From IMG/VR virus record IMGVR_UViG_3300045988_118370, positions 81,863 to 145,862 of that record: a stretch of DNA of 64,000 nucleotides; one strand, 5' to 3'. This DNA is from a virus. The position numbers were made by a program, and so were the translations under genes. Below the pieces are notes generated by a model. That model was not told the DNA's origin, did not search any database, and saw nothing but the letters and a program-made list of their open reading frames with translations. This document shows, in pieces, positions 1-41,231 of this stretch. Numbering within the stretch: position 1 is the stretch's first letter; the number at the start of each line of letters is the position of its first letter.

Positions 1-215
1 TTTATAAGTCATCTTATAATCAACTTGATTGGTTTTAAGATTAATAGCCTTCCGCACTCGGATCTCTTCAAGCACTTTACCATCATTATCAAAGTCAATC
101 ATAAGATAGATTTGTTCAATTTTCTTATGACGAACACTTTTTTCCTTCATCCAAGAAGGGATATTTTTAATATCAAACTTACGTTCGATTTCCATCTTTA
201 TACTCCTTTAACTCT
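1..215 (-). CDS. hypothetical protein, partial (N-terminal part; continues past window start)
   Basis: Minus-strand ORF starting at ATG about 213-215 (MEIERKFDIKNIPSW...). GGAG-type RBS upstream on the minus strand. Runs off the window edge. Confidence 0.35.
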
Positions 216-353
216 TGGAAATAAGTAAGAATCTACTCATTTTTATCAATAATCTCTGGACTATAATTATAATACTTCATAGAAGCAATCTAATCTTTCC
301 ATTCAGCGATTAACTAATCTATAGTATAATTCATGATTTCACCTACTTACTAT

Positions 354-429
354 TGGGGTGACTGACGGAATTCGAATCCGTGACATTCTGAGCCACAATC
401 AGACGCTCTACCAACTGAGCTACAGCCAC
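354..429 (-). tRNA. tRNA-His (anticodon GTG)
   Basis: Revcomp folds as a cloverleaf. Acceptor GTGGCTG/CAGTCAC, anticodon loop TTGTGGC, T-loop TTCGAAT, CCA encoded. Confidence 0.7.
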
Positions 430-430
430 A

Positions 431-518
431 TGGTGCTTTTGGTGAGACTCGAACTCACATGAACTTTACGCCCACTAGATTCTTAGTCTAGCATGTATAC
501 CAATTCCATCACAAAAGC
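431..518 (-). tRNA. class II tRNA (Leu-like); anticodon loop CTAAGAA gives AAG by standard numbering
   Basis: 88 nt. Acceptor GCTTTTG/CAAAAGC, 3-bp D stem, long variable arm, T-arm GTGAG-TTCGAGT-CTCAC, CCA encoded. A34 is unusual. Confidence 0.6.
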
Positions 519-535
519 ATTTTCTTATTTTCATA

Positions 536-570
536 TATTTATTATATAATATTTTTTTTATAAAGTCAAA
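536..570 (-). promoter_or_regulatory. sigma70-type promoter (TTGACT-N17-TATAAT on minus strand) upstream of the tRNA pair
   Basis: Revcomp reads TTGACTTTATAAAAAAAATATTATATAAT. Confidence 0.55.
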
Positions 571-572
571 AG

Positions 573-610
573 GGCCGATGTAAAGTATATTCACTTTACA
601 TCGGCCGTCG
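573..610. terminator. perfect 13-bp-stem hairpin (bidirectional terminator candidate)
   Basis: GGCCGATGTAAAG tatattca CTTTACATCGGCC lies immediately after the stop of the 613..1752 gene. Confidence 0.6.
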
Positions 611-612
611 CG

Positions 613-1752
613 TTAATAAAGATACTGTTCAATAGTGTTTGCGACCTTAGTTAAAACAACAGACTTAATTACGCGCTCATTTTTAGCCTTTTCAATAGCT
701 TCCTTACGCTTTTCAGCATCAGTAATCGTCCAAAAGTCATCAGGATCAATGTAAACTTCAACCTTTTTCGGATCAGCTGTAATCATACCCTTTTCAATCT
801 TAATCGAATCAGGAGTCAAGGCATAACGAATAGTCTTACTATCTGAGGCATAACCATCATACCATCTTTGATGATTGGTATTAGGATTGTTAAACAAATT
901 AACTGAAGCACCATAGGTATTATATACATCACCATTTACCGTAGTAATAGTGATATTGAAACGAACATTGGAAGTCTGAGAGATATTAAGGTCTTCAAGA
1001 GTTTCTGCCACACCATAACCCTGATTAAGTTCAAAAGCAATCGCTCGAAGATAATCATAAGTCATATTAACAGTGCGAGAAAAATTCACAATATCCTTAA
1101 TACCATCTGCGTATTTAGGCTTAACCTTATCAGTCAAATACTCAACGATCTCTTCCTCAGTTGGGAAAGTAATCTTAAAATGATAATGGAAACGACCAGG
1201 TCTATTCAAAAGATAAGTGCTAAGTCGATCAACTTCATTACAAGTAATGACAAAAAGCTTCTTACCATTATCAAGACCATCAAAAAGAGAAAGCATTTCT
1301 TCCTGCGGAGAGGGGCCCGCATGGTCGTCAGAGTTATTAGAGAAATTCTTTTCAAACTCATCAAAAATAATTACGACTTCTTGCTCGATACTGGAAATAA
1401 AATCTGCGATACCAGGCATATAAGTATTAGCCAAAAGGACAGGATATCCGTTTTCAATAGCGTGATGAGAAAGAATACGAGCAAACAATGACTTACCAAT
1501 ACCCTTCTGACCACTTAAAATAACACCAAGATTACGGTCTGAATACTTAAAAGAATTAAGCACCTTATTGACTTTAACTTCGTGATTACCATAAATTTTT
1601 TCCTCATTGACCGCAAGATCTGGACGAGAAGAAAGATAAAAACCTGCCATCTTACTAAAGCAGACTTCAAAAGACATAAGCGGAAGTCGCTTATAAGTCT
1701 TAACGTCCTCGCCATAAATCTGATAGCGAGAACCAGCGTTTACAATATTCAT
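613..1752 (-). CDS. AAA+ family ATPase
   Basis: 379 aa. Walker A GQKGIGKS, Walker B VVIIFDEFE, sensor LLNRPGRF. RBS AAGAGGA 8 nt upstream. TAA stop. Confidence 0.8.
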   Translation of the reverse strand: MNIVNAGSRYQIYGEDVKTYKRLPLMSFEVCFSKMAGFYLSSRPDLAVNEEKIYGNHEVKVNKVLNSFKYSDRNLGVILSGQKGIGKSLFARILSHHAIENGYPVLLANTYMPGIADFISSIEQEVVIIFDEFEKNFSNNSDDHAGPSPQEEMLSLFDGLDNGKKLFVITCNEVDRLSTYLLNRPGRFHYHFKITFPTEEEIVEYLTDKVKPKYADGIKDIVNFSRTVNMTYDYLRAIAFELNQGYGVAETLEDLNISQTSNVRFNITITTVNGDVYNTYGASVNLFNNPNTNHQRWYDGYASDSKTIRYALTPDSIKIEKGMITADPKKVEVYIDPDDFWTITDAEKRKEAIEKAKNERVIKSVVLTKVANTIEQYLY

Positions 1753-1779
1753 ACTTAATCCTCTTAATTTAAAATTTAA

Positions 1780-1870
1780 TGGCGAAGGAGAGAGGATTCG
1801 AACCTCCGGGCCCCAAATGAGGCCAACACCTTAGCAGGGTGCCGCATTCAACCAGCTCTGCCACTCCTTC
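1780..1870 (-). tRNA. tRNA-Ser (anticodon GCT), class II
   Basis: Acceptor GAAGGAG/CTCCTTC, anticodon stem-loop GCACC-CTGCTAA-GGTGT, long variable arm, T-arm GGAGG-TTCGAAT-CCTCT, CCA encoded. Confidence 0.7.
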
Positions 1871-1962
1871 ATAATATATAAATAGAATAATTTACTGCTT
1901 AAACAGATGATATCCTCGTTTAAACCATACCACACCCTCACCCAACGCCTCAATTATTCTAT

Positions 1963-2199
1963 TTATTTACACCTATATATAATTAGCTTAGGCTTAATAC
2001 TATATCCACAATAACTACGCCAAGTGCGATAATTACTAAAAATATAATATTTTCTATCAGGTTTAATATTACCAAATAAATTTAAAACTCTCAGTCCTTG
2101 CTTATAATGAGAAGTTTTATTATTCACTTGATAATTGGCCCAATCAAGAATTTCTTGACCGCTAAAACAAGGATTTTTATAGCTTAAAATATTTTTCAT
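1963..2199 (-). CDS. hypothetical protein (78 aa)
   Basis: ORF with RBS GGAGGTAGGAT before the ATG. TAA stop. Confidence 0.5.
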   Translation of the reverse strand: MKNILSYKNPCFSGQEILDWANYQVNNKTSHYKQGLRVLNLFGNIKPDRKYYIFSNYRTWRSYCGYSIKPKLIIYRCK

Positions 2200-2608
2200 A
2201 TCCTACCTCCTCTGCTTTTCTGGACTTGGAACCAGCCTATGGTAGCATTAGATAGGCGACCGCACTTATCGTTCGCTAGGACAAAACTCGCGCTCATCGC
2301 CAAAGATCAAATCATCAACATCTTTAAACATATCAGACAATCCTCCTTCTTTATTTATTTTTATGAAACAAAATAGAGAGTAGAAAAACAATTCATTTCT
2401 ATGGAAGTGAGAGAAAACAACAATCTATATATCAAACGAAAGGGGAAATCAAACAGAAAGATAAGTAAGAAAATGAACTAGATGTAAAAGACTCTCTCTA
2501 TTGTATAGTCTTTTGTTTCTATATATTTAAATATATAGAAGAGTAGCCTTTCTAACAGGCATCCCAACAGCCTCGAGCAGCAAAGAGGTTCCTCATTTGT
2601 TGGTCTTT

Positions 2609-2684
2609 TGGTGGGCGGAGACAGAATCGAACTGCCGACGCTAGGATCTTCAATCCTACGCTCTACCAACTGAGCTATCCGCCC
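2609..2684 (-). tRNA. tRNA-Phe (anticodon GAA)
   Basis: GGGCGGATAGCTCAGTTGGTAGAGC..., anticodon arm TAGGA-TTGAAGA-TCCTA, T-loop TTCGATT, CCA encoded. Confidence 0.75.
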
Positions 2685-2898
2685 ATAATATTTATATTGC
2701 TACGATTCCCGATTCTCCACGTAGTCATTCTTCCTTTAAAATTGACTAAAAGAATGTGATATTTTATTTATCGTACTACATCAACAATATAAATAGAACA
2801 AGACGCTATAAACAATCTTAAGCATATGTATTTTGTACATTGATGTTTTAAAGTTTGCTGTTAGCGCCTTAATTATTCAAAAAGAAAGGAAAGATAAA

Positions 2899-3102
2899 TT
2901 ATGCGTTTGCGGGTTCCGCGTTCTTCGGTCTGCGGAACTTTACATAACGCTCACCATCATATCGGGACATCCAAATGATTGTGCCATCCTTAAAATGGAA
3001 ATCATAAGTAAAATCTTTATCCTGTTCATCAACCTGATGGCAAAAGCCCTTACCATACTTCTTAGAATAAACCTTGTCGCCGGGCTTAAACTTAAACTTC
3101 AT
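2899..3102 (-). CDS. hypothetical small protein (67 aa)
   Basis: ORF with RBS AAAGGAGATATCTAA before the ATG. TAA stop. Confidence 0.5.
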   Translation of the reverse strand: MKFKFKPGDKVYSKKYGKGFCHQVDEQDKDFTYDFHFKDGTIIWMSRYDGERYVKFRRPKNAEPANA

Positions 3103-3147
3103 TTAGATATCTCCTTTTGGATTATTTTAATTTACAAGACACAAATG

Positions 3148-3219
3148 AAATATTTGTTGGAATTGAACCAACTACAATTTGTTTGACAGACAAATACTCT
3201 ACCAATGAGTTAAAATACT
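3148..3219 (-). tRNA. tRNA-Asp-like (anticodon GTC), AT-rich acceptor, no encoded CCA
   Basis: D arm ACTC-ATTGGTA-GAGT, anticodon arm TTTGT-CTGTCAA-ACAAA, T arm GTTGG-TTCAATT-CCAAC, acceptor AGTATTT/AAATATT. It sits inside a spurious plus-strand ORF. Confidence 0.5.
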
Positions 3220-3300
3220 TTCAATAGAAAATGATTGCTGTGTGTGTCTTTATTACTGTGATACCTCTTAAAAGAGGGCTTACGGCATTACGCCTAATAT

Positions 3301-4080
3301 TTATATGTTTTTCCATTCATCATCAGTGTATAAATTTATAATTTTTTTTGTATTAGGTAAATTATAAGAAATACACCATTTTCTAATGGAATTATCACTT
3401 ACATGATATATATTCGCGATAGAAGTAAAACTTTTATTACGAATCAATTTTTTTAATTTATCACGAGAAGGTCTTTTAATTTTTCGATGTTCTTTAGCAG
3501 AACATTTCTAACATTTTTGACCTTTTCCGCTCCACTCTCCACCACATATAGGACAAACTTTTTTTAAAAGTTTTTTCTCTTCTTCTGGTTTATTTTTATC
3601 AAAACGAGAATAATGTAAAGGATAATTTAATTTTTCATTAAACCAAGTTCTTCCAACATTTATATCTCTAATAGTATCTTTACTAACTTTATATTTTTTA
3701 GCTAATTCCGAATGATTAACTACACCTAACTTATCATTAATTAAAATATTTTGAATATCTTGGACTTCCTAATAATTTAATTTTTGATAAATTACGCGAT
3801 AATCTCCACCTATTGTCTAATTATACTCTGGTTTATAATAATCAATCCAATAAGTTTCTCTACTATTTAGATTATCAATTTCACATTCTTCTAACACTTC
3901 AAATATAAAATTAGAAACACCATATTTTCTGAAACTTTGATATAAGGGATAATTATAGCTTTTACTCTTTTCATCTTGGGAGCTATATATATGATTTTCC
4001 CAACGTTCTGCTATATTTCTTGACTATCCAATATAACAATGATTATTTATTTTATTAGTAATTTTATAAATTCCTATCAT
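3301..4080 (-). CDS. GIY-YIG family homing endonuclease; 4 in-frame TAG codons read as sense
   Basis: N-terminus MIGIYKITNKINNHCYIG(TAG)SRNIAERWENH carries the GIY and YIG motifs. CPICGGEW zinc finger and a C-terminal HTH-like tail. RBS AAGGAG 8 nt upstream. Continuous frame of 259 aa only if TAG is sense. TAA stop. Confidence 0.75.
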
Positions 4081-4163
4081 ATTACCATCTCCTTACACTA
4101 TAATTAAAATTTTATTTAAGATAATTATAATTTTTCGACCTCGAAAGTATTTAGGTGATGATA

Positions 4164-4238
4164 TGGTTGCGGTCGGGCGATTCGAACGCCGTTTTTGGCT
4201 TATGAGGCCAACGAGCTACCTTTGCTCCACCACCGCAA
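4164..4238 (-). tRNA. tRNA with CAT anticodon (Met, fMet or Ile2)
   Basis: Anticodon arm TTGGC-CTCATAA-GCCAA, T-loop TTCGAAT, CCA encoded. One mismatch at acceptor 7-66. Confidence 0.6.
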
Positions 4239-4315
4239 TGGTCGGTCAAATTAGAATCGAACTAATATCCCTTGTCTTATGAGAACAATGCTCTACCAGT
4301 TAAGCTATTGACCGA
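4239..4315 (-). tRNA. second tRNA with CAT anticodon (Met or Ile2)
   Basis: Acceptor TCGGTCA/TGACCGA, D arm AGCTTAACTGGTAGAGC, anticodon arm TTGTT-CTCATAA-GACAA, T-loop TTCGATT, CCA encoded. Confidence 0.65.
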
Positions 4316-4474
4316 AAATAGGATAGATATAATATTCATGACTATTATATCTATTGGACTTTCTAACCTATCGTCCCAAAATTCTTAATAGACCTCATCA
4401 AATGGCCAACTTTTGTAGAGGCTTTTGTGCGACCACCTGCGCACTTACATAGACATAAGAATAATGCCAACATA

Positions 4475-4550
4475 TGGCGACCCCGACGGGTGCCGACCCC
4501 GCTATCTCCAGCGTGACAGGCTGGCGGCTCTGCTGACTGCCCCCAGGGCC
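4475..4550 (-). tRNA. tRNA-Asp (anticodon GTC)
   Basis: Anticodon arm CCAGC-CTGTCAC-GCTGG and T arm GCGGG-GTCGGCA-CCCGT resemble E. coli tRNA-Asp. Acceptor GGCCCTG/CGGGGTC pairs including G-U pairs. CCA encoded. Confidence 0.55.
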
Positions 4551-4553
4551 ATA

Positions 4554-4630
4554 TGGTACTCCCAGCCGGATTCGAACCGGCGACTCCAACGTGAAAGGCT
4601 GGTGACTTAAGTCCGCTTGTCGATGGGAGC
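4554..4630 (-). tRNA. tRNA-Glu (anticodon TTC)
   Basis: Acceptor GCTCCCA/TGGGAGT, anticodon arm CCAGC-CTTTCAC-GTTGG, T arm GCCGG-TTCGAAT-CCGGC, CCA encoded. Long D-loop. Confidence 0.55.
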
Positions 4631-4706
4631 ATATTAAATAGACTATAAAGCCGTCTATTAGGGCAAATAATATTTCAGTTCCTTACTAAAAGCGATAAAA
4701 GTAAGG

Positions 4707-4784
4707 TGGTGGCGCGAAGGGGATTCGAACCCAACTATCGCGAGAGTGAGAATCTCGCATCCTAAACCGTTAGACGACCGCGTC
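4707..4784 (-). tRNA. tRNA-Glu-like (anticodon CTC)
   Basis: Glu-type D arm TC-GTC-TAACGGTTTAG-GAT, anticodon arm CGAGA-TTCTCAC-TCTCG, T-loop TTCGAAT, CCA encoded. One acceptor mismatch and a weak T stem. Confidence 0.5.
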
Positions 4785-4939
4785 ATATTTAAGCACATCT
4801 ATCATAATCTTGATTTTTGTGCTTTTGTTTTCGCTTAAACGAGCCTTTACCTTTCTTCGCAGGAACTTTAAATCCTCTGCGCCGAAACAATTGAAGATAC
4901 TCATTAAGCTCTTCCTTATTCTTTTTCATATAACTTTTA

Positions 4940-5044
4940 TTCACGGTATTCATCCTCATCTTCATAAAGGGAAAGATCCTGATAAGCAGCATATTCATCA
5001 CTCTGAATCTCGCAAGCATAGCTTTCATAGTAATCATTATACAT
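4940..5044 (-). CDS. small acidic peptide (34 aa), uncertain
   Basis: ATG sits 8 nt after RBS AAGGAAGA in the conserved promoter-leader module. Translates MYNDYYESYACEIQSDEYAAYQDL.... The track ORF 4789..5037 in another frame has no RBS. Confidence 0.3.
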
Positions 5045-5060
5045 AATTTAAATCTTCCTT

Positions 5061-5110
5061 TCTTAACTTTCTATAAATATTATAACTTATTTTTTATAAA
5101 ATGTCAAAAG
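5061..5110 (-). promoter_or_regulatory. type-1 early promoter-leader module (TTGACA-N17-TATAAT plus conserved leader with RBS)
   Basis: Revcomp reads TTGACATTTTATAAAAAATAAGTTATAATATTTATAGAAAGTTAAGAAAGGAAG. Near-identical modules recur at about 6770-6830, 7090-7150, 14760-14830, 18590-18650, 19255-19320, 24065-24120, 28085-28150, 30840-30900 and 33735-33790. Variants at 16440-16500, 22050-22110 and 25150-25210 have TTTATT in place of TTGACA. Confidence 0.6.
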
Positions 5111-5223
5111 ATTAAAAGACCAACCAAAAGCGATATTTGTTAACGATGGTCGCCACTCCACCGCCGTCAATATTCACAAACACTTACCATTTTCACACTA
5201 ACCTACTAATTAAAGGAGGTGAC

Positions 5224-5311
5224 TGGTGCTTCGAGAGAGACTTGAACTCTCACCATCCGTTCGGATAATCGGGTTTGAGCCGATCGCGTCTGCCAATTCC
5301 GCCATCAAAGC
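5224..5311 (-). tRNA. tRNA-Leu (anticodon CAA), class II
   Basis: Acceptor GCTTTGA/TCGAAGC, anticodon arm ATCGG-CTCAAAC-CCGAT, long variable arm, T-loop TTCAAGT, CCA encoded. Confidence 0.7.
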
Positions 5312-5332
5312 ATAACTAAGAGGATTTTTAAG

Positions 5333-5462
5333 AAGAATCCTCAAAACTTCTTTCTAATCATCTAATTGGATTTTTAAGAAGAACCCTCAAAACTTCTTTC
5401 TAATCTAACGGAAGTTTTAAGAAGATCTTCCAACTTCTTTCTAATCTTAATCGCACTTTAGG
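5333..5462. repeat. three tandem ~42-bp repeats, each an AAGAAG...CTTCTT hairpin
   Basis: The unit ttttaagaagaaNcctcaaaacttctttctaatc occurs three times head-to-tail, directly upstream (minus sense) of tRNA-Leu(CAA). Confidence 0.7.
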
Positions 5463-5858
5463 GCGGCCGTCCCTTCGCGGCGTCACGATTTGCATAATTT
5501 ACTGTATTACCATTTTATTTTCCGAAAAAGGCTACAAACCAAAATGGGAGTTATTTAAGAATAACTTCTAGACTACGCTAACTGCTCAAATTTTCTCTTC
5601 TTAGTGGGAAAAACTTTCTTAGCGCTGAAACCAAAATCACTATTAGCATTTTGTATATATTATCTTATTGTATATAAGTTTTATTAATATACCTTATCTA
5701 TTATATCATTTAGTATATTGTATTAATGTTTAATTAATAAGATAATATTTCTGGCTGCTTTTATCACCAATCATATAATTGGTTATATTGGGCAATGCTC
5801 CCAAACTTGCGGTTTACTTAACCGCCGTGCTTACTCTTTACACCATATAACCATATAA

Positions 5859-5929
5859 TGGTGGACCTCGTGAGAATCGAACTCACCTGATTTTCTGTGT
5901 GCAAGACAGACGACCACGCCATGCAGTCC
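5859..5929 (-). tRNA. tRNA-like, Ala-type anticodon arm (TGC), shortened D region
   Basis: T arm GTGAG-TTCGATT-CTCAC, acceptor GGACTGC/GAGGTCC (6 of 7 pairs), anticodon arm TCTGT-CTTGCAC-ACAGA, CCA encoded. Only about 10 nt between the acceptor and anticodon stems. Confidence 0.35.
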
Positions 5930-6024
5930 CGAAGCCCGGAATGCGACTTATTTATGTATAGATGGAGTCGCCAACCACCTGCGTTCAAAGTCCGCAAGCC
6001 TTCAACGCATTCCCAGGGAGGGAT

Positions 6025-6101
6025 TGGTGCTGGAGAAAGGACTCGAACCTTCAGATTAATGATCCTAAATCATTCGTCTATGCCAATTCGACTACACCAG
6101 C
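6025..6101 (-). tRNA. class I tRNA with anticodon TAG (reads CUA; Leu-like decoding but not class II)
   Basis: Acceptor GCTGGTG/CTCCAGC, D GTC-GAATTGGCATA-GAC, anticodon arm AATGA-TTTAGGA-TCATT, short variable arm AATCT, T arm GAAGG-TTCGAGT-CCTTT, CCA encoded. Confidence 0.55.
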
Positions 6102-6120
6102 AAATAAAGAGTTTTATAAC

Positions 6121-6215
6121 CCACATCGCGAAGATTCGAACTTCGTCAACCGTTAGGACTCGAACCAACTTTTACTCTTTTGGATTCCCAGAACCCATAG
6201 CCTTGATTAATGTGA
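6121..6215 (-). other. ambiguous tRNA-like segment with two T-loop motifs
   Basis: Perfect T arm CGAAG-TTCGAAT-CTTCG plus a second GGTTCGAGTCC motif 25 nt away. A 5' acceptor candidate CACATTA pairs with CGATGTG, but I could not fold a single clean cloverleaf. Confidence 0.3.
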
Positions 6216-6341
6216 GTATAGCCACTACTTCACAATAAGTTTTACTTCGCTTTCTTATATTTAGTCGGGCGTTTTCCGCAAACCACATACTCTTTCGATC
6301 GGTGGTAGTTTAAACTTACAAAATCCGTGTTAACGCCCCAA

Positions 6342-6418
6342 TGGCGGGAGAGATAGGATTCGAACCTATGACATCTTGTTTAACAGACAAGCGCTCTAAC
6401 CAACTGAGCTACACTCCC
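6342..6418 (-). tRNA. tRNA-Asn (anticodon GTT)
   Basis: GGGAGTGTAGCTCAGTTGGTTAGAGC..., anticodon arm CTTGT-CTGTTAA-ACAAG, T arm ATAGG-TTCGAAT-CCTAT, CCA encoded. Confidence 0.7.
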
Positions 6419-6439
6419 ATAAAAGAAGGACTTTTTAAA

Positions 6440-6500
6440 ATCCTTACTTTATATATTTATTATATTATATTTTTTTTAAAAAATCAACTTTTCTCTTTTA
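6440..6500 (-). promoter_or_regulatory. promoter (TTGATT-N17-TATAAT) for tRNA-Asn; a second consensus promoter at 6530-6570
   Basis: Revcomp reads TTGATTTTTTAAAAAAAATATAATATAAT. Upstream copy reads TTGACATTTTATAAAAAATATTATATAAT. Confidence 0.5.
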
Positions 6501-6571
6501 CCCAAATTTTTTTATTTTCTTTTTTCTTTCTTCATTTTATATAAATATTATATAATATTTTTTATAAAATG

Positions 6572-6754
6572 TCAATAAGGTCTTTGAATTGGCATTAAAT
6601 CATCTTCTGAAAGAAGCCACTTTTCACCATGCTCATCAAGGACTTCAATCTGATAATTTAATACTCGAATGACAGTACATTTAAGATACTGTCTACGATA
6701 ACAACGACCACGATAAGGGACAAAACAATAAGAATTACCAACTTCAATATTCAT
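6572..6754 (-). CDS. hypothetical protein (60 aa)
   Basis: ORF with RBS GAAAGGAGAAAATAAATA before the ATG and its own type-1 promoter at 6770-6830. TGA stop. Confidence 0.5.
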   Translation of the reverse strand: MNIEVGNSYCFVPYRGRCYRRQYLKCTVIRVLNYQIEVLDEHGEKWLLSEDDLMPIQRPY

Positions 6755-6910
6755 TATTTATTTTCTCCTTTCTCAACTTTCTATATATATTATATTATAT
6801 ATTTTTAATAAAATCAAAAAAGTTCTTTTTGTTTAAGTAGATTTAACAAATTTACCACAATTTTAGTCGAAATCAGGAACACCGCGTGAAGGTATTGTGG
6901 ATAGTTCCCG

Positions 6911-6982
6911 CAGGCGCCGTAGGATTCGAACCCACACCTCAAGATTTTGGAGATCCGAATGCGACCGTTACACCAGACGCCT
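6911..6982 (-). tRNA. tRNA-Trp (anticodon CCA), no encoded CCA tail
   Basis: Acceptor AGGCGTC/GGCGCCT (A1-U72), anticodon loop CTCCAAA with a 4-bp stem, T arm GTGGG-TTCGAAT-CCTAC. Confidence 0.5.
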
Positions 6983-7003
6983 ATAAAACAAGACCTTAAC
7001 TTT

Positions 7004-7074
7004 GTCCGGAAAATGGATTTGAACCATTAACTTAATCTTAAATGATTATGACCTAACCTTTAGTCTATTCTGGA
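7004..7074 (-). tRNA. atypical tRNA-like gene with a 6-nt anticodon loop (ATTTAA)
   Basis: Acceptor TCCAGAA/TTCCGGA, D GAC-TAAAGGTTAG-GTC, perfect anticodon stem TAATC/GATTA around loop ATTTAA, T arm AATGG-TTCAAAT-CCATT. No CCA. Confidence 0.4.
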
Positions 7075-7089
7075 AGTTATTTTTGCTGT

Positions 7090-7150
7090 AAAGGTCTTTC
7101 TTTATTTTATAAATATATTATATATTATTTTTTTAAAAATGTCAAAAAAT
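7090..7150 (-). promoter_or_regulatory. type-1 promoter (TTGACA-N17-TATAAT) upstream of tRNA-Trp and the atypical tRNA
   Basis: Revcomp reads TTGACATTTTTAAAAAAATAATATATAAT. Confidence 0.55.
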
Positions 7151-7153
7151 TTT

Positions 7154-8470
7154 TTAATTCGTTATTAGTTTCCATGTTGTACTATCTGTTTTTACATATA
7201 CTCTACTGTCAGGATGAGCCATATAATAAGTTAAATATACTGAACTATTTGCTGTACTATCACGATAAGGCTTAACATATATATAATAAGTAGTTCCAGC
7301 AGTAACTTTATAACAAATACCAAAATTAGCTCCAGTACCACCATATTTTTTTGCATAATCATCATCACTAACTAAAATATTAGAAGAAGGCTATCCACTA
7401 CTATTAAGAGAAGTAATATTTGATGTTAAATATCCATAAGTATCTATTGAAGAATTAGAATAAACAATAAAGTCCCCTGAAATAGTAGGAGTAAAAGAAA
7501 AATATCGACAAGTGCTTGGAGATAAAGTCCAAGAAGAGGTATTCTATTTGTTATAAGTAGGAGCAGATATTGACACAGTAGAATAAGCCCAATTTGCTAT
7601 AGACTAAATAGTAATTCTTATATAGCCATTTCCACCATGACCTGTTTCAGATGACCCTGTTGGAGAAATAAATGAAGAATTACCTGCGATAGTTGATGCA
7701 GAAGTTAAATAATAGTTACTATTTAACAAACAACCAGAAGGATAATTAGAAGCAGTGGATGAGGTATATACATAACCAGAACCTCCGCCACCATGATATT
7801 TTGTTCCACCCTGCATATTAGAGAGTGAAACAATTCCACCATACCAGCCGCCTCCTCCAGCTCCATTTATATTATAAGAAGAACTGGATGAATATCCATT
7901 TCCTCCTACTCCAAAGCTATTTCCTGAAGTTTGTGTACTTAGACCTGGACTATTAGACCCTGCTACACTACTGGTGCCCCCACCGGCATCTCCGCTTTCT
8001 GTATTAGATCCCCAAGAGGTAGCTCCGCCTCCGCCGGCGACAATTACACGAGCGTAGAGAGAGTTTGATCCAATACGAATATCAGAAGCTCCTCCACCAC
8101 CACCGCTTCGAGACATAGATCCGGAGACTCCTCCAGTACCGCCTCCATTAAATCCTCCTGTATAATCATTAGCAGAAGAAGAAATACAACCTCCTTTTCC
8201 ACCAGTATATAAATATACCGTTTGAGAGGAAGAAAGAGTTAAAATTCCCGTTGAATATCCACCTTTTCCTCCTATAGCTCCCGAAGAAGCGTCAAAACTA
8301 GAGTTACTATTAGCACCATTTCCTCCCTAAGCCCCCCAACATTCTAATTTATAAGTACCTTTTGGAAGGGCAATATTTTTATAAGTTCCACTATAAGGAC
8401 AATTTAATATATCTCCTGTTTTTAAAGAAGAAGAAGAAGGAATTGAAGAAGTTAAGTCGTAAGTTGCCAT
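7154..8470 (-). CDS. glycine-rich tail-fibre-like protein (paralog 2); 4 in-frame TAG read as sense
   Basis: Continuous 438-aa frame from ATG at 8470 (RBS AAGGAGGAG) to TAA at 7154 when TAG is sense. Motifs YKLECWGA, YLYTGG, GGGGGASDIRIG and GYIRITI are shared with the upstream paralog. Track fragments 7604..8116 and 8452..8670 are pieces of it. Confidence 0.65.
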
Positions 8471-9864
8471 GTAACGTCTCCTCCTTTCCAAGTTGTACTA
8501 TCTGTTTTTATATATATAGCTTTAGTAGGAGCATAAGTATTAGAATTGATTTTTATATTTAAAGGAGATAATACTGTAATACGAATATATCCATTTTGCC
8601 CTCCAGGATTAGTTTTACTATAGCCTATCGTAGTAGAGGCATTTGTTAAATAATAATTATTGTTTAACAAACAGCCAGAAGGATAATTAGAAGCAGTTGA
8701 TGAAGTATATACGTAGCCAGAGCCTCCCCCATTATAAGTTCTATAATCAGCAGAGCTATCACTAACATTAGTAGAAGCACCACCGCCATACCAGCCACCA
8801 CCACCACCACCGGGACCATAATTATAATTGGTAGATCCACTAGCATCAGCACCTTGACCAAAAGATCCATTTGTTCCTGCTTTAGTCTATGTAGCCTTAT
8901 ATTCTTCAACCGCAGAGTTACCCGTCAATCCGCCACCCTATTTAATAGAAGAATTACTTTCTCCCGCGCCACCACCACCACCACCGGCAACAATTACACG
9001 GGCATAAAGAGAGTCTTGACCTACGCGGATATCGGAAGCTCCTCCGCCTCCTCCACCTGATGTGTAAGCAGAAGTATACCATCTAATCCTAGAGCTACCT
9101 CCTCCATTAAATCCACCATTAACTATCTTACCTTTTTCACTATCACTTGAATAACTACCATGCCCCCCGGTGTATAAATAAATAGTGGTAGGAACTGGTA
9201 AAGAAAGAATTCCTATAGAATATCCTCCTGTTCCACCCCAATAACTATTTTTTGAACTCGCAGGAGTATAAGTAGTATTACTTTCCTATTTCTAAATCTA
9301 AAAATAAACTTCTTCATTATCCACGGAATTTGAGCTATCTTTAGTATAAGTCATTACGATAGTAGATCCTGATGATAAAGAATAAGTGCCAGTAGTAGTA
9401 AGAGAACTTGATCCAGAAACCGCATTTAAAACTGTATTTCCTCCAACAGTTAAAGTGACTTTATCATAGCTTGCTTCAGTTTTATAATAATATGAAAATT
9501 TATAAGTCCCCCCAGAAGTACAAGTTAATGTAGTTGTAGCAGTACTTGAATCTATTCCTCCGTTAGTAGCTATCCAGTCATTTCCGTCTTGACGAAAATA
9601 ATAATTTGAATCATTAACAGTAAAATAACTGGTCGCATTATGAGTTCCTATATATATCCATGAAGTTGTTGTTGATGAAGTTAAAGAACCAGAATAACCA
9701 ATTCCGCCATAGCCACCCCAACATTCTAATTGATAATTTCCCGCTGGAAGTTTTACTGGATTTACCGCTCCTGAATAGCTACTATTAATAATATCTCCTG
9801 GAATAAATTTAATAGAAGAATAATCTGTTATAGAAGTTCCAGAAGGATTATAAGTATTTGGCAT
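8452..9864 (-). CDS. glycine-rich tail-fibre-like protein (paralog 1); 5 in-frame TAG, three of them within 6 codons
   Basis: ATG at 9864 with RBS AGGAGGA. The frame continues through F-TAG-I-TAG-K-TAG-E at about 9286-9300 into a Gly-rich region with the same motifs as paralog 2. TAA at 8452. 470 aa if read through, 188 aa if the TAG cluster terminates. Confidence 0.6.
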
Positions 9865-9880
9865 TTAAATTCCTCCTCTA

Positions 9881-10435
9881 TTAAGTGAAATACTAAATCC
9901 AAATATCTCCAACATTTCCGTCTGAAGCGGTGGGAGCAGAAGTGGATACTTTAATATTTCTTAAAATATTATTGTTTAAATAAGAAGAATTAGTAGTGAC
10001 AGATAAATTAGATCCCATAGAACCATTAGTAATCTAAGCTAAGTCTAATCCTGGATTAATGGGTAAAATATAATCACCACTGGATGACCCTAATTGTATC
10101 TATCCGATAAATGCTTCATCTTTATATAGAAAATTTGCTTCTACAGCAGTATTCTAATGCCAACATCCTAATCCATTATTAGAATGTTCTTTTTTAATAT
10201 AATATTGAGTTAATTTTAATGCTCCTAAATTATTTATATTTATTGTTATATTAGTAATTGGATTTGTCGCAACATTATTCATATTTGGAATAAGGCCAAT
10301 AATCATTCCGTCTTTATATTCTTTAATAGATTTTGCGGTTCCTATGTAAGTTAATCCATCAGTAGAAGTAATTGGAATAATTTCTAAACTACCACTTCCA
10401 CTACGCATATGTTCTATTGCTTTTGGAATTGCCAT
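9881..10435 (-). CDS. hypothetical tail-associated protein; 4 in-frame TAG read as sense
   Basis: ATG at 10435 with RBS AAGGAGGT. The frame is open through 4 TAGs to TAA at 9881 (184 aa). Track fragment 10154..10435 is its N-terminus. Confidence 0.5.
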
Positions 10436-10517
10436 TTAAATGACCTCCTTATAAATTTTATTATTTCTATAAAATTTAAAAATTTATAGGTAAGTCATTA
10501 ATTTAATTTGGTTAAAT

Positions 10518-10546
10518 AAAAAAAGAGTAATGTCAAATGACATTAC
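10518..10546. terminator. perfect palindrome GAGTAATGTCA-AATGACATTACTC (bidirectional terminator candidate)
   Basis: Lies just downstream of the 10555..10860 stop and is followed by T-rich sequence. Confidence 0.5.
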
Positions 10547-10554
10547 TCTTTAGA

Positions 10555-10860
10555 TTAACTTAATCCCAATCTTGCCTTTAAATCGGCAATATTTTTCTTT
10601 TCATCTATAGTGATTTCAATTGGGGTTTCTCCGCCTGCAGTTGCCCCATCTTCAAAATTCAAAACATTTGAATCCGCGGTTGCACCTGCTTCACCGATCG
10701 GAGTCTTTGGGCACGTCATACTAATAGCAATCTGAATTCGCTCACCATTTTCATTAGCCCAAAGATAATACTTTTTATCTCGCTCGCCGATCCAATCAGC
10801 GCCAAATACTTCCGCCATTTTCTTAGCGATTTGTTCCTTAGCTACTGCACCTTTAGCCAT
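10555..10860 (-). CDS. hypothetical protein (101 aa)
   Basis: ORF MAKGAVAKEQIAKKMAEVFGADW..., TAA stop. RBS not inspected. Confidence 0.55.
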   Translation of the reverse strand: MAKGAVAKEQIAKKMAEVFGADWIGERDKKYYLWANENGERIQIAISMTCPKTPIGEAGATADSNVLNFEDGATAGGETPIEITIDEKKNIADLKARLGLS

Positions 10861-10872
10861 ATCTAATTCTCC

Positions 10873-12306
10873 TTAACTAAAATTATGTATAAAGTCTTTT
10901 AAAGACCTAAAATTATTAACTTTTTCTTCACCAGCATCTCTAAAGCACCAAGGACATAAATACATATCAGTCCCTTTATGATAGTGAATATCTTCTGTAT
11001 AATATAAATTATTACAACATTCGCATCGTTTACAATAAGTATCCGCACAACTATCGCAAACTAATTCATTCTCATCGCCTACGGAATTTGCTTCATCAAG
11101 AATTATACGAGAACCGCAACAAGCGCAATAACCATAGTTATCGTCTTCATTTACTCCATAACTGAATTCACAATCTCCGCATCGCATATATTCTCCACTT
11201 TCAATTATAGTTTTACCGCATTGTAAACAAGGAACATCACCACCAATAGACCAATGAGGAAGATCAGTCTTGTCAAATGGATAATAATACAATTTTAAAC
11301 TATAAATAGGCAAATAGCAAGAAGAATAAAGCAAATCATTATATTGAAGAGTATGCTCACCAATATCTTCAACGATATCACTAATAGGATATAAACGAGA
11401 CAAAATAGGAATCCATGTTTCAGATAATCCGATAGTCTCTTCTCCAAAAGGAGTGCTACTCATCCTATTAGAGACAGTAGTAATACCTCCGTCTACCCAT
11501 TCACGCAACTGAAAAGTCTTATCAAAAGTATTGATAATATCTTTAATTTTTATTAAAGCATTAGTTGTCATAAAAGGATATTGGCGACCAGCCATCAAAC
11601 CGCGTCGTTTATCTTCCATGTAAAGAAGCATACGCCATTTCTTAGAATTCCAAAGAACGTCTTCGGGGAAATGCGGAAGTTTCTGATTCTCCGCTCCGCG
11701 CAAATAGCAAATAAAAGTGCTTCTATCTACCATGTAAGATAAATTTCCTGCTCTGTATTCACCATCAAGCGCATGACAAGAACGCCAATTATAAGTATTT
11801 TCACTCACGCTCAGAAAATCCAAAGGATGAACTGAGAAACATAATGTTCCCTCAATCTTGTCCTCTTGGATAATACGACTTGCGTAATTTTGAATATCTT
11901 CCAAAGAGCGCGGATTCTCTTCAAAATACTTAAAAGCCTTAACTAATTTCATTCCTCTTGGAATCTTTTTATCCTTATAAAAATAAGTATCTATAACTGT
12001 ATTATTAAAGAATCCTTCTTTATTTACTGAAATAAAATCTTTTAAGTCTTCATTATTATAAGTATAATTAATTGTTTCAAGAAACTCCTCAAGACGATGC
12101 TCTTTAGTTTTATCATCTAAAGAAAAAGATACCTTTTCCGGCCATTCATAAATTAAATGACCGTGAAAAAATTTAATTAAGTCTTTTTTGGCTTTGAGGA
12201 ATCTTTCGAATAGTTCTTCTGTTTTTGGATTACTGATTCCTTGGGAGTAACTGATGACTTTGTTGAACTGTTCTCTAATGCTTTCGATGTCGAAGTCATA
12301 TGACAT
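10873..12306 (-). CDS. large paralog A of an unknown family with SVHPLD...W-SC core and a Cys-rich C-terminus (possibly PcfJ-like)
   Basis: Start at MSYDFDIE with RBS GGAGG 7 nt upstream; the track start at 12327 has no RBS. Core LCFSVHPLDFLSVSENTYNWRSCH is shared with the 14814..16418 protein. C-terminal CxxC clusters. Confidence 0.65.
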   Translation of the reverse strand: MSYDFDIESIREQFNKVISYSQGISNPKTEELFERFLKAKKDLIKFFHGHLIYEWPEKVSFSLDDKTKEHRLEEFLETINYTYNNEDLKDFISVNKEGFFNNTVIDTYFYKDKKIPRGMKLVKAFKYFEENPRSLEDIQNYASRIIQEDKIEGTLCFSVHPLDFLSVSENTYNWRSCHALDGEYRAGNLSYMVDRSTFICYLRGAENQKLPHFPEDVLWNSKKWRMLLYMEDKRRGLMAGRQYPFMTTNALIKIKDIINTFDKTFQLREWVDGGITTVSNRMSSTPFGEETIGLSETWIPILSRLYPISDIVEDIGEHTLQYNDLLYSSCYLPIYSLKLYYYPFDKTDLPHWSIGGDVPCLQCGKTIIESGEYMRCGDCEFSYGVNEDDNYGYCACCGSRIILDEANSVGDENELVCDSCADTYCKRCECCNNLYYTEDIHYHKGTDMYLCPWCFRDAGEEKVNNFRSLKDFIHNFS

Positions 12307-13334: not shown

Positions 13335-14135
13335 TTATTTGTCAATTGAGTCCTCTTCCGCCTCGGGGATAGGATTATTCTGCTTACTTGCTTGAACGGC
13401 TTTATCTATAACACGAGAGAATATAAATGCGGTTTCACAATAATGGCACGTCCCTTGTCGTTGACAGCGCTGACCGCAATTGATGCGGTTGGGGCCAAAA
13501 TCTTCGGGGATTCCACGATTATCCGCATTATAATTTAGATTGGTTAATAAAAGGTTTAGATTACCTTGCCAATGACCGCTTTGGTAGATATCCAAAAGCA
13601 CAGCTTCTTTGGAGAGTGCGGGCTCGTCAAATTCTAAAGTTGAGACATATGTTCCATAATAATCTACGTCTTCCGGTCGGACGTAGGAACCGCATATTCC
13701 ATTTTCTCTTGGAAGATTATCGTCATAGCATTTATTCGCAATCATACGAATTGGGACTTTTGCTTGCTGATTTAATTGTCTCAAATCAAATGTAAGTGGT
13801 GCCCCGATGAAAAGTTCGCTAACTTTAAGATCAAGGAGAACGCGGACTTCTGCCCATGTAGTAGCGGGATAAGCGAAATAATACTTTACATCAATATTAC
13901 ATCCATTACGAGTAAGCATATCTTCAAATGCTACAATAAGATCGACTTTATCCTTAAAGGAATCAATCTCTTCCCAATTCACTTCTTCGTTTTTGCGGAT
14001 TCTGATAATATATCGCTTATTAGGAAATTTCTAAATCATATCATACATAATGTTTATATCATTATAATTAACCATAAGCTCATCAGCCTTCTCACGAACA
14101 ACATCAGGTTGACGCACAGAAACACAATATTTCAA
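13335..14135 (-). CDS. hypothetical protein with one in-frame TAG; probable TTG start
   Basis: TTGACA-N17-TATAAT promoter at about 14150-14190 and AAGGAG RBS, then TTG at about 14133-14135. The frame continues through TAG at about 14031-14033 into the track ORF 13335..13982. TAA stop. Confidence 0.45.
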
Positions 14136-14813: not shown

Positions 14814-16418
14814 TTAAAAAATCAAAGAAGGTCTTTGATTTGGGTTAGTGCCATTCACCCAAGAAATAAATTCCTCTTCATTAATGTCAAAGAGGTCTCT
14901 GCCCTTTTCCGTGAGAGTTTCTCCATCGACATAATAATTAGAGCGCCAACCGTCTCTTTCTTCTTCAATTTCACCAGTGAAGAAGGTTTTTACTTTTTTA
15001 TCTCCACAACAATCCCAACAAATATCCGCATAGAATCCAACTGGCTTCTTTTGGAATCGAAGACGGATTTGCTTCATATCATCATAATCTTTACGAACTT
15101 CACAACAAGGACAAACTTCTGTGCTTTCATCATAACAATAAGCGCAGTAAGTTTTTCCATCGACATTATAAGTGTCATCGACATAAACAATATCGCCACA
15201 CTTATCGCACTTTACTGCACCCGAGCAACTTGGACAGATAGTCATTTCCGCGTTATTCTCTCTATCATCGAAGAGAGAATCATCAAGAAGCTCTCCACAA
15301 CACATACACTCAGATTCACCCGAGTAGTTAAGATCAATGTTTTCGTCCGTAGGAATCTTAGTGGAAACGTAAGCATTATGCTCTGAATAGATATCGTTAT
15401 ACATGAAATTGGTATCAAGATTGAAATAAATATTTCTATCAAACTCACCAATAATATTATTACTGTAATTCTGAATCTTATTTAAATACTTGGTATAAGG
15501 ACCAAAGCCAAGATTCTGTTCAGCGAGCTTCTTGATCCAAGCGAGACAAATACTTTCAAGGTTATCATTACAATAAGGATAACCCTTGATACCAAGGATA
15601 AGACTTTCATCTACGATGAAAAGTTCACGCCAGCGCTTGCTATTCCACATCACAGGCTTACCAACCTTATAACAAATTTCCATGTCCTTATCAGATTTAA
15701 GATAAGCTTCAAGGATAATGGGAGAATTCATCATCTCAACGGTTCCCTGACGATATTCGCCACCACCATTCTGCCATCTCATACAAGAATCCCAACCGCA
15801 ATTATTATCACTCATAGTGATATAATCAAGAGGATGAACAGAAAGACAAAGTTCACCAGAAATATTTTTCTGATTGAGGAACTGAGAATGAGCGATACGG
15901 AACTTTTCATAAACATCGCGGTCAATCTCCAAAATATCACTCAGCTTACCAAGCATCTTACTAAGCTTCATGCCCTTATTAATCATAAGAGTTTTATTAT
16001 TATAAGTGAATTTAAAAGATTCACCATCATAGATGTTAGACATTAAAGGTTCAACATCCAAAAGACTTGCCAAATTAAGATACTGAGTATTAGAGATGGT
16101 TGTCCTGAGATAAAGATCTCTTACCTTATTATTAAAGGTATTTCGGAATTCGAAACCATCACCATTTCTACCGAAATAATCATAATAATCATCACTCATC
16201 TCTTCATAAGAACGAGAATAACTTACCTTACGAGAAATGATAAGATTATCTCCCAACATCTTATAAAGATTCTGCTTATTATAAGCCCAAAAGCGGAGAA
16301 TGTAGTCGAGAGATGCCTTCATATCGGAACTATCTCCGCCGAGGCCCGCAAAATTACGAATATACTCTTCAATCTTTTCGCAATCTTCTTTGGAAAGGAG
16401 CTCAAATAAATTAGCCAT
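14814..16418 (-). CDS. large paralog B of the SVHPLD...W-SC family (possibly PcfJ-like) with a Cys-rich C-terminus
   Basis: 534 aa. Core GELCLSVHPLDYITMSDNNCGWDSCMRWQNGGGEYRQG. C-terminal Cys clusters. Own promoter and RBS. Confidence 0.7.
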   Translation of the reverse strand: MANLFELLSKEDCEKIEEYIRNFAGLGGDSSDMKASLDYILRFWAYNKQNLYKMLGDNLIISRKVSYSRSYEEMSDDYYDYFGRNGDGFEFRNTFNNKVRDLYLRTTISNTQYLNLASLLDVEPLMSNIYDGESFKFTYNNKTLMINKGMKLSKMLGKLSDILEIDRDVYEKFRIAHSQFLNQKNISGELCLSVHPLDYITMSDNNCGWDSCMRWQNGGGEYRQGTVEMMNSPIILEAYLKSDKDMEICYKVGKPVMWNSKRWRELFIVDESLILGIKGYPYCNDNLESICLAWIKKLAEQNLGFGPYTKYLNKIQNYSNNIIGEFDRNIYFNLDTNFMYNDIYSEHNAYVSTKIPTDENIDLNYSGESECMCCGELLDDSLFDDRENNAEMTICPSCSGAVKCDKCGDIVYVDDTYNVDGKTYCAYCYDESTEVCPCCEVRKDYDDMKQIRLRFQKKPVGFYADICWDCCGDKKVKTFFTGEIEEERDGWRSNYYVDGETLTEKGRDLFDINEEEFISWVNGTNPNQRPSLIF

Positions 16419-33716: not shown

Positions 33717-34084
33717 ATGAATACCTCTTTTCTTATTTTCTATATATATTATATACTTTTTTTTTAAAAATGTCAAGATTTTTTTAAATGAAAACATACG
33801 TGTGAAACAATGTAAGGGCGAAGCAATTTTTAATTAATCATAAAGGCATATGATCCTACGCGGGCTTAAAAAAGTCTTTTTTTATTATTATAACATATTT
33901 TTTATAAAAAGTCAATTTTCGGGATTTTTTTGGGCCATATGGAGAGGTGCTAGAAGTATGAGAAATTTTGCATATGGGTATACCGATCGGAAACTCGGCC
34001 CGGCACGTTCCACCGCGGGCCGGCCAAATAAACTGAGCATTCCGGGATTTTAGTCTGAGTCTATTTTAGACGCTTTTTTCGCGC

Positions 34085-34230: not shown

Positions 34231-34232
34231 AT

Positions 34233-41230: not shown

Positions 41231-41231
41231 T

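Follow-up and report, generated by a model that had tools for sequence, protein, structure and literature searches.

The 64,000-nucleotide stretch of viral DNA described here (IMG/VR record IMGVR_UViG_3300045988_118370, positions 81,863 to 145,862; referred to as the window throughout) stems from a phage in which TAG is a sense codon, and it carries on its minus strand, at 354-7074, a cluster of 17 tRNA or tRNA-like genes, none of which has the anticodon CUA. Very probably, this cluster is the edge-cut part of a longer array of a phage using genetic code 15 (TAG = Gln), with the amber suppressor tRNA(CUA) located outside the window. The region 354-7074 would then comprise approximately the first three quarters of the array, 17 of about 22 genes, and Ile(UAU), Ile(GAU), Val(UAC), tRNA(CUA) and Tyr(GUA) would follow outside the left edge. 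The apparent puzzle of a TAG-recoded phage without an amber suppressor is removed in this manner: the array runs off the window.

Continuation of the array past the left edge

The ATPase gene within the array (613-1752) served as the anchor for retrieving related loci. The search yielded ten IMG/VR contigs (32-196 kb), in which the ATPase protein is 88-100% identical to that of the window; ENA contigs with an identical ATPase protein were also retrieved. Two ENA contigs, L028 (193 kb) and L029 (195 kb), match window positions 1-11752 collinearly at 99.5-99.7% identity, and the 16 tRNAs called in the window at default settings recur in them in unchanged order. Beyond tRNA-His, they add Ile(UAU), Ile(GAU), Val(UAC), a tRNA(CUA) at 15957-16046 and Tyr(GUA); the CUA gene is thus situated on the same strand as the array, about 4.2 kb left of window position 1. 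A tRNA(CUA) gene between Val(UAC) and Tyr(GUA) is common to all twelve related contigs (ten from IMG/VR and two from ENA). Another contig, L030, is 100% identical to the window over positions 1-8384 and reaches 1229 bp past its left end; this extension is 99.84% identical to L028 and contains tRNA-Ile(UAU) about 1 kb out. The array of the window's strain demonstrably runs off the left edge, and the relatives, 99.5-99.8% identical in the shared DNA, suggest that the strain has a CUA gene of its own. An exact 60-mer from the window's left end was found in two IMG/VR contigs only, and a near-identity search of GenBank phages with positions 1-12000 and 52000-64000 gave no match.

Inside the window, ARAGORN at default settings called 16 tRNA genes on the minus strand between 354 and 7074 (Table 1). 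The second Asp(GUC), at 4475-4550, was called at the 90% score threshold only and is the 17th gene; its counterpart is called at default settings in the relatives L001, L004 and L008. In a whole-window scan, 13 of the 17 genes passed the gathering score of the Rfam tRNA family RF00005 (29 bits), with 35.5-74.7 bits, and relaxed filters added 7004-7074 as a 14th Rfam tRNA (42.7 bits). The remaining three, namely Ala(UGC) at 5859-5937, 'Thr(AGU)' at 5779-5853 and the Asp(GUC) at 4475-4550, stay below this score, with ARAGORN as their sole support. The other 57 kb (7075-64000) gave no Rfam tRNA match, even at E<1, and the clustering of tRNA genes on a single strand is far above chance. A CCA end is encoded in 13 of the 17 genes and absent from tRNA-Trp, the six-base-loop tRNA at 7004-7074, the A+T-rich tRNA-Asp and the 'Thr' element. 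A preliminary description, made from the sequence alone, had proposed an array of about 17 genes with duplicated specificities; the array was confirmed and the list recovered item by item, i.e., His, Leu(AAG), Ser(GCU), Phe, two Asp(GUC), two tRNAs with anticodon CAU, Glu(UUC), Glu(CUC), Leu(CAA), a class-I tRNA with anticodon UAG, Asn, Trp and three atypical genes. The first of the two CAU tRNAs (4239-4314) is not of the initiator type because its C1 and G72 are paired.

The absence of a CUA anticodon from the 64-kb window, also stated previously, was reproduced by ARAGORN (default, intron and 90%-threshold modes), by Rfam, by BLAST with the three types of CUA tRNA of the relatives and by a regular-expression scan for N-U-CUA-R-N stem-loops. 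A single 'cta' call at 13603-13693 on the plus strand appeared among 33 extra low-score calls at the 80% threshold of ARAGORN only; it was treated as a false positive, as it has a 9-base T-loop without the T-psi-C motif, is antisense to a minus-strand open reading frame (ORF) and has no Rfam match. Intron mode and low thresholds otherwise produced only implausible long-intron calls or low-score calls within ORFs. Three places had originally been considered for the missing suppressor: elsewhere in the genome, in the host, or hidden in an atypical tRNA gene. The first has gained support from the array passing the left edge and from the CUA tRNA in all related contigs; the third has found none, and a host-encoded suppressor is unnecessary. 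More generally, claims of absence made near an edge in scans of fixed windows warrant caution.

TAG as a sense codon

Recoding was judged by two features, the continuation of homology across in-frame TAGs of conserved genes and the correspondence of TAG to Gln in standard-code homologues. When TAG is read through, long ORFs emerge that match phage proteins over their full length, and the PHROG alignments run across the in-frame TAGs of the terminase, portal, sigma factor and tail-fibre-like genes, spanning 3-12 TAGs. In the terminase large subunit (TerL), TAG positions 67 and 382 are Gln in 50/51 and 46/51 diverse full-length homologues, respectively, and also in Enterococcus phage H1 and Geobacillus virus E3, both of which are cultured and use the standard code; the remaining six TAG columns are variable and uninformative on the meaning of TAG. 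TAG is a sense codon in this phage, as had been assumed at the outset, and in the TAG-containing genes it takes over the role of CAG, as codon counts and alignments agree: CAG and TAG occur at 1.9 and 14.1 per 1000 codons in TAG-containing genes, and at 13-22 and 0 per 1000 codons in TAG-free genes. For UAG in this phage, Gln and hence code 15 are predicted.

Two other lines of evidence were discarded. A gain in coding density is unsafe as a test of recoding: reading TAG as sense lifts the coverage by ORFs of at least 100 amino acids from 65% to 83%, and removing TAA, the true main stop, lifts it even more, to 94%, so that homology across TAGs was used instead. Orthologous codons among close relatives are uninformative on the meaning of TAG, with 80 of 86 aligned codons still TAG.

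According to a crude gene map of the window, 35 of 99 predicted genes contain TAG, and the stop codons of the 99 are TAA (72) and TGA (27). The long minus-strand block at 10.5-30.8 kb and the small genes of the 34-51 kb block are nearly free of TAG. Codon style also differs sharply between 7154-10435 and 51964-63303, on the one hand, and 10555-30831, on the other. TAG-containing genes favor A-ending codons compared to TAG-free ones (per 1000 codons: TTA 46 vs 9, AAA 67 vs 26, ATA 17 vs 2.5, GGA 34 vs 13) and are also rich in AGA. The genes for the major capsid protein and two neighbouring late proteins (59692-62413) have zero TAG and the 'early' codon style. The tRNA set corresponds to the late-gene codon bias in part only: besides the suppressor, the full array includes Ile(UAU), Leu(UAG), Glu(UUC), Ala(UGC) and Val(UAC), and it lacks Leu(UAA), Lys(UUU) and Gly(UCC).

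The block at 34-50 kb, which has 45% G+C and lacks long ORFs whatever the code, had drawn attention as unusual and resolves into many small standard-code phage genes. These are mostly on the minus strand of the 34000-51000 region (45% G+C vs about 35% elsewhere) and include antitoxin-like, polynucleotide kinase (PNK)/HAD-like and exonuclease-like genes; TAG triplets are 2-3 times rarer on its minus than on its plus strand in all frames.

The CUA tRNA and its theta ribozyme

The CUA tRNAs of the relatives come in three unrelated cassettes of 90, 73 and 72 nt with identical flanks. All three types have G73 and the loop C-U-CUA-A-A, none encodes CCA, and position 1-72 is unpaired in the form of U1.U72, U1.C72 or C1.U72. 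Glutaminyl-tRNA synthetase (GlnRS) prefers a weak or unpaired 1-72 position, G73 and U35, as defined by the E. coli identity set; in these features the tRNA(CUA) of the relatives looks Gln-like.

In every relative, a theta ribozyme motif, i.e., a minimal ribozyme similar to that of hepatitis delta virus (HDV), is located directly 3' of the CUA tRNA, with its G1 right after C74 (L028). A first scan for HDV-like motifs was too permissive in A+T-rich DNA, giving dozens of matches, and was replaced by one built on the segment layout in the Supplementary Data of Kienbeck et al. (2024, PMC10879173): nested P1, P2, P3 and P1.1, a G1:U wobble, a P3 of 3 bp, L3 of the form U-NN-NCG(C/U) and J4/2 starting with the catalytic C. 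As a second feature, the cleavage site should lie no more than 5 nt from the 3' end of a tRNA. Both strands of the window (128 kb in total) contain a single match, the segments of which are GGGAAC/TA/TCCACAAT/ACC/T/TC/ACGC/GGT/GTTCCT/GA/TTTCGA/CTAAA/ATTGTGGT; its G1 is the base right after the 3' end of tRNA-Trp (6910/6909). The motif of the relatives reads GGTGCT/A/AAAACAAA/ACC/T/CC/TCGC/GGT/AGCACT/GG/GTAATG/CTAA/TTTGTTTA. P1, P2 and P1.1 of the two ribozymes differ by compensatory changes, P1.1 being CC/GG in the latter and TC/GA in the former. The Trp tRNA of this type found in L003, L043 and L051 has an encoded CCA behind it in place of the ribozyme; this natural swap fits a role of the ribozyme in 3'-end formation. 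Self-cleavage is predicted from the motif for both elements, neither of which was matched in the searched part of the supplementary tables of Kienbeck et al. (2024).

A 166-amino-acid ORF at 39612-40112 on the minus strand shows a sub-threshold match to HAD_PNKP, the polynucleotide kinase phosphatase domain (Pfam, 21.6 bits; cut-off 27.6), and a PHROG match to polynucleotide kinase (E 6e-8); its product is a candidate enzyme for the repair of the 2',3'-cyclic phosphate ends that the ribozymes would produce. A twister-P1-like element at 2254-2204 (minus strand) reaches 39 bits, compared to the RF03160 gathering score of 67.2 (E 6.9e-6 in an 8-kb scan), with the conserved core nucleotides aligned and the P3 stem absent. 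The 78-codon ORF at 2199-1963 has a Shine-Dalgarno sequence that overlaps with the 3' strand (GAGGAGGUA) of this element.

Some further elements surround the CUA gene in the relatives. An uncalled tRNA-like 3' half (CTGGTTCGAGTCCAGCCGGCCGTGCCA) lies at 15640-15700 of L028, about 260 bp upstream of the CUA tRNA, which itself begins 10 nt past the stop codon of a 39-codon ORF. Downstream of Tyr(GUA), L008 (16911-16990) and L010 (16489-16568) have an extra weak 80-nt call with anticodon UCA and several acceptor-stem mismatches.

A model of the code switch

These elements may cooperate as follows: The phage, probably a gut phage of about 160-196 kb, would switch to code 15 (TAG = Gln) for its late genes. 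Its array would consist of several short transcription units with consensus host-type promoters, interspersed with small ORFs and with the ATPase and homing endonuclease genes, and the suppressor would be transcribed together with the array. RNase P presumably frees the 5' end of the suppressor, and the theta ribozyme, starting at the base after C74, may free the 3' end, which would then be repaired and completed to CCA. Host GlnRS is the probable charging enzyme, as suggested by the unpaired 1-72 position, G73 and U35. The charged suppressor could then read UAG in the late genes, in which TAG has the role of CAG. The same ribozyme device would serve tRNA-Trp(CCA) inside the window, and none of the tRNAs encoded there would be the suppressor.

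Several points weigh against this model. The window's genome was followed beyond position 1 for only 1.2 kb, by means of the identical contig L030. The array is a mosaic between strains, with swapped tRNA cassettes and variation in Trp, Ser and 'Thr', and a strain-specific loss of the CUA tRNA is formally possible because of this mosaicism. By sequence, the three CUA cassettes are not clearly derived from tRNA-Gln(UUG) genes of the phages themselves. Finally, charging with Gln, cleavage by the ribozyme and the expression timing are predictions from sequence.

The first two points are at the root of the alternative that survives best, in which the window's strain has lost the CUA tRNA and depends on a host-encoded suppressor or evades the release factor by other means. 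In addition, suppressors were detected in only 40% of TAG-recoded genomes (Borges et al., bioRxiv 10.1101/2021.08.26.457843). The tRNA(CUA)-ribozyme unit is, however, kept in 12/12 related contigs despite three exchanges of the tRNA cassette itself, which argues for strong selection on suppressor function, and the window's strain is 99.84% identical to L028 as far as it was followed. Loss of the suppressor is thus quite unlikely. Two further alternatives place the recoding agent inside the window and concern atypical tRNA genes.

Atypical tRNA genes

The tRNA-like gene at 7004-7074 is the first after a perfect-consensus promoter and has an anticodon loop of 6 bases, not only in the window but always, in seven IMG/VR, eight metagenome_contigs and three ENA contigs. 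Only two alleles of the loop occur: AUUUAA in the window and in most contigs, CUUCAA in L001, L028, L029 and L048. The body of the tRNA is nearly invariant, whereas the flanking DNA falls to about 89% identity. In this tRNA, A4 and C69 are mismatched, the discriminator base is C and CCA is not encoded. The gene is bracketed by an 8-bp inverted repeat (AAGACCTT / AAGGTCTT; 7091-7098 and 6990-6997, minus strand) with GTTTTAT after it; the repeat is conserved in every copy seen and may fold into a stem around the gene, acting as a processing site or terminator-like structure.

With U33 in register, the two alleles give UUA and UCA, the anticodons for the two remaining stop codons of the phage. 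In the reading A32-U33-[UUA]-A37, the tRNA would pair with UAA and, by a U:G wobble, with UAG, and it could thus be the suppressor hidden in the window; it is well formed (42.7 bits in Rfam), strictly conserved and at the head of the array. Four considerations make this hardly credible: (i) a canonical CUA tRNA exists in every relative, so that a second reader of UAG is not needed; (ii) the UCA allele cannot read UAG, yet L028, L029 and L001 have the same in-frame TAG genes; (iii) a UUA anticodon would also suppress TAA, the stop of 72 of the 99 predicted genes; (iv) decoding by a tRNA with a six-base loop is not an established process. A broader proposal, that this is a functional non-canonical participant in the code switch and not a dead tRNA, is unlikely as well, if somewhat less so; it could modulate termination at UAA/UGA, decode in an unusual register or be a decoy that engages a host enzyme attacking tRNAs. 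The literature was searched for phage tRNAs with six-base anticodon loops, with no useful result.

The class-I tRNA(UAG) at 6025-6101 lacks the long variable arm that is normal for bacterial Leu tRNAs, and the reverse complement of its loop UUUAGGA, UCCUAAA, contains CUA; the chance that it is the recoding agent, by way of an opposite-strand CUA or of non-Leu charging, is negligible, since the gene scores 59.8 bits in Rfam and encodes its CCA on the minus strand, no plus-strand tRNA was called by ARAGORN or Rfam, a tRNA read from the plus strand would carry C33 and lack a T-psi-C loop, the gene shares its D-loop, A73 and G37 with the Leu tRNAs nearby, and a class-II Leu(UAG) occupies the site in L010. 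It is a real, conserved tRNA with a Leu-type D-arm: the D-loop GAATTGGCATA is the same as in the two class-II Leu tRNAs, and in the distant relative L011 the short-arm form is kept through many compensatory stem changes. Because E. coli LeuRS does not need the long variable arm, the tRNA is most likely still a Leu acceptor. The codon that it reads is CUA, not UAG. A suppressor outside the window continues to be the best explanation.

Four other genes deviate from the usual pattern. Ala(UGC) at 5859-5937, with a G3:U70 pair, a 3-bp D-stem and a long variable loop, is present in relatives, and Rfam gives only a 23-bit tRNA-Sec match. The 'Thr(AGU)' element at 5779-5853, which has A33, no T-psi-C loop and an 8-bp acceptor stem, is absent from several relatives, and no Rfam match was obtained for it at E<5. 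The A+T-rich Asp(GUC) at 3147-3219 has a body identical to that of an Asn(GUU) at the same site in eight IMG/VR relatives: the polymorphism is one C/T difference at position 36 (compared with L001), and GUC is present in the window and in L028-L032. A34, which is unusual in bacteria outside Arg(ACG), occurs in Leu(AAG) at 431-518 and in the doubtful 'Thr' AGU at 5779-5853. Leu(AAG) is kept in most relatives; in L007 and L009, ARAGORN did not call it.

Organisation and mosaicism of the array

Four sigma-70-type promoters with a common extended sequence each head a short transcription unit of the array (Table 1), and a strong terminator-like hairpin at 573-606 precedes the one at 541-569. The ATPase and homing endonuclease genes are located between the tRNA genes; the Pfam GIY-YIG match was obtained on the L028 gene that is identical to the window's gene at 3301-4080. 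Between the window and the 99.5%-identical L028, single-nucleotide polymorphisms cluster in tRNAs (three in His, four in the Trp anticodon stem and three in the six-base-loop tRNA), and long inter-tRNA stretches are identical. In L001 (9444-9973), a 438-bp insertion with an ORF of about 131 codons interrupts tRNA-Ser(GCU) immediately behind the anticodon; a group I intron was suspected, and none was found by Rfam.

Directly upstream of tRNA-Leu(CAA), positions 5322-5447 consist of 2.9 tandem copies of a hairpin-forming unit of 43-46 bp (AGAAAGAAGTTTTGAGGATTCTTCTTAAAAATCC). Within the 240-nt spacer between tRNA-Asn and tRNA(UAG), at 6102-6341 (minus strand), there are a long hairpin with imperfect pairing (GGGCGUU…AACGCCC) and two motifs that resemble a T-arm, GGTTCGAGTCC and GAAGTTCGAATCTTC; the overall fold of the spacer is no better than that of shuffled sequence (z = 0.27).

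Table 1. Coordinates and supporting evidence of tRNA genes, ribozyme motif, promoters and protein genes in the window
Feature	Position	Strand	Evidence and remarks
tRNA-like, 6-base anticodon loop AUUUAA, no CCA	7004..7074	-	ARAGORN 'tRNA-?(Lys|Stop)(tt)'; Rfam 42.7 bits
tRNA-Trp(CCA), ends G73-C74, no encoded CCA	6910..6982	-	ARAGORN; Rfam 42.3 bits
tRNA-Asn(GUU), CCA encoded	6342..6418	-	ARAGORN; Rfam 74.7 bits
Class-I tRNA(UAG), 77 nt, short variable loop, CCA encoded	6025..6101	-	ARAGORN; Rfam 59.8 bits
tRNA-Ala(UGC), CCA encoded	5859..5937	-	ARAGORN only
Doubtful tRNA-like 'Thr(AGU)', no CCA	5779..5853	-	ARAGORN only
tRNA-Leu(CAA), class II, CCA encoded	5224..5311	-	ARAGORN; Rfam 51.6 bits
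tRNA-Glu(CUC), CCA encoded	4707..4784	-	ARAGORN; Rfam 35.5 bits
tRNA-Glu(UUC), CCA encoded	4554..4630	-	ARAGORN; Rfam 54.2 bits
Second tRNA-Asp(GUC), G+C-rich, atypical T-loop, CCA encoded	4475..4550	-	ARAGORN, 90% threshold
tRNA(CAU), C1-G72 paired, CCA encoded	4239..4314	-	ARAGORN; Rfam 64.1 bits
Second tRNA(CAU), CCA encoded	4164..4237	-	ARAGORN; Rfam 57.4 bits
tRNA-Asp(GUC), A+T-rich, no CCA	3147..3219	-	ARAGORN; Rfam 63.8 bits
tRNA-Phe(GAA), CCA encoded	2609..2684	-	ARAGORN; Rfam 68 bits
tRNA-Ser(GCU), class II, CCA encoded	1780..1870	-	ARAGORN; Rfam 53.6 bits
tRNA-Leu(AAG), class II, A34, CCA encoded	431..518	-	ARAGORN; Rfam 56.2 bits
tRNA-His(GUG), last tRNA before the left edge of the window	354..429	-	ARAGORN; Rfam 67.8 bits
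Theta (minimal HDV-like) ribozyme motif	6854..6909 (6909-6854)	-	Fits all segments of the published layout
Sigma-70-type promoter TTGACA-17-TATAAT, array head	7117..7145	-	Consensus scan, 12/12
Perfect-consensus sigma-70-type promoter, upstream of tRNA-Asn	6547..6575	-	Consensus scan, 12/12
Perfect-consensus sigma-70-type promoter, upstream of small ORF and Glu, Asp, Met tRNAs	5079..5107	-	12/12
Sigma-70-type promoter, upstream of Leu(AAG)-His	541..569	-	Consensus scan, 11/12
AAA-type ATPase gene, embedded in array	613..1752	-	No TAG; PHROG ATPase E 6e-103; Pfam AAA
GIY-YIG homing endonuclease gene, inside array	3301..4080	-	4 in-frame TAGs; PHROG homing endonuclease E 3e-34
Tail-fibre-like genes	7154-10435		4-5 in-frame TAGs each
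Sigma factor gene	51964-53079		3 in-frame TAGs
Conserved protein gene	53129-54316		8 in-frame TAGs
TerL gene	54316-56055		8 in-frame TAGs
Portal gene	56408-58087		12 in-frame TAGs

Comparison with known systems

Classical phage tRNA clusters, such as those of T4, T5 and mycobacteriophages, are tight, lie on one strand and combine host-type promoters with small ORFs, homing endonucleases and duplicated genes. The array described here is similar to them in its single-strand clustering, host-type promoters, small ORFs, homing endonuclease and duplicated specificities. It differs from them in being tied to a change of the genetic code, in the predicted use of small ribozymes for 3' processing and in the conserved six-base-loop tRNA.

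The code-15 gut phages described by Borges et al. (2021/2022, bioRxiv 10.1101/2021.08.26.457843) and Peters et al. (2022, PMC9523058) show the same concentration of TAG in structural, packaging and tail genes, keep other gene blocks in the standard code and retain TAA and TGA as stops; they are also large, are derived from gut metagenomes and encode a tRNA(CUA), as do the relatives here. Unlike in these phages, no gene for a release factor or an aminoacyl-tRNA synthetase was seen in the window, and TAG is absent from the major capsid protein gene and from two late genes next to it.

Among the recoded groups described so far, Phassvirus (phAss-1, 136 kb; Babkin et al. 2023, PMC10607447) is the nearest; it shares the recoding of TAG to Gln, the origin from human gut and a large tRNA set (28-36 genes) with tRNA-Sup-CTA and no dedicated synthetase. 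The TerL of phAss-1 is likewise related to those of Bacillota-infecting phages, and the nearest cultured relatives of the present phage infect Bacillota. In contrast to Phassvirus, the TerL is only 44.8% identical, the genomes are larger (159-196 kb), and the arrays of the relatives contain one CUA gene each, compared to 2-3 in Phassviruses. More than 7600 close TerL homologues exist in the protein collection, and the lineage is abundant and appears not to have been characterised so far.

With the theta-tRNA units of Kienbeck et al. (2024, PMC10879173), the units described here share the segment architecture, G1 at the tRNA 3' end, the lack of an encoded CCA and, in the relatives, the association with a tRNA-Sup(CUA) in a code-15 phage; unlike in that association, the ribozyme within the window would serve tRNA-Trp(CCA) and not a suppressor. 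Systems of this kind are already on record in recoded gut phages (Borges et al.; Kienbeck et al.; phAss-1): the use of TAG as Gln in late genes together with a phage-borne suppressor by Borges et al., and the combination of tRNA and theta ribozyme by Kienbeck et al. What the present locus adds is a clean natural example of the tRNA-theta ribozyme device, in which the ribozyme is constant and three CUA cassettes are swapped in front of it; the conserved six-base-loop tRNA, by which the array departs from the classical clusters, is the only one of its elements on which experiments might be worthwhile.

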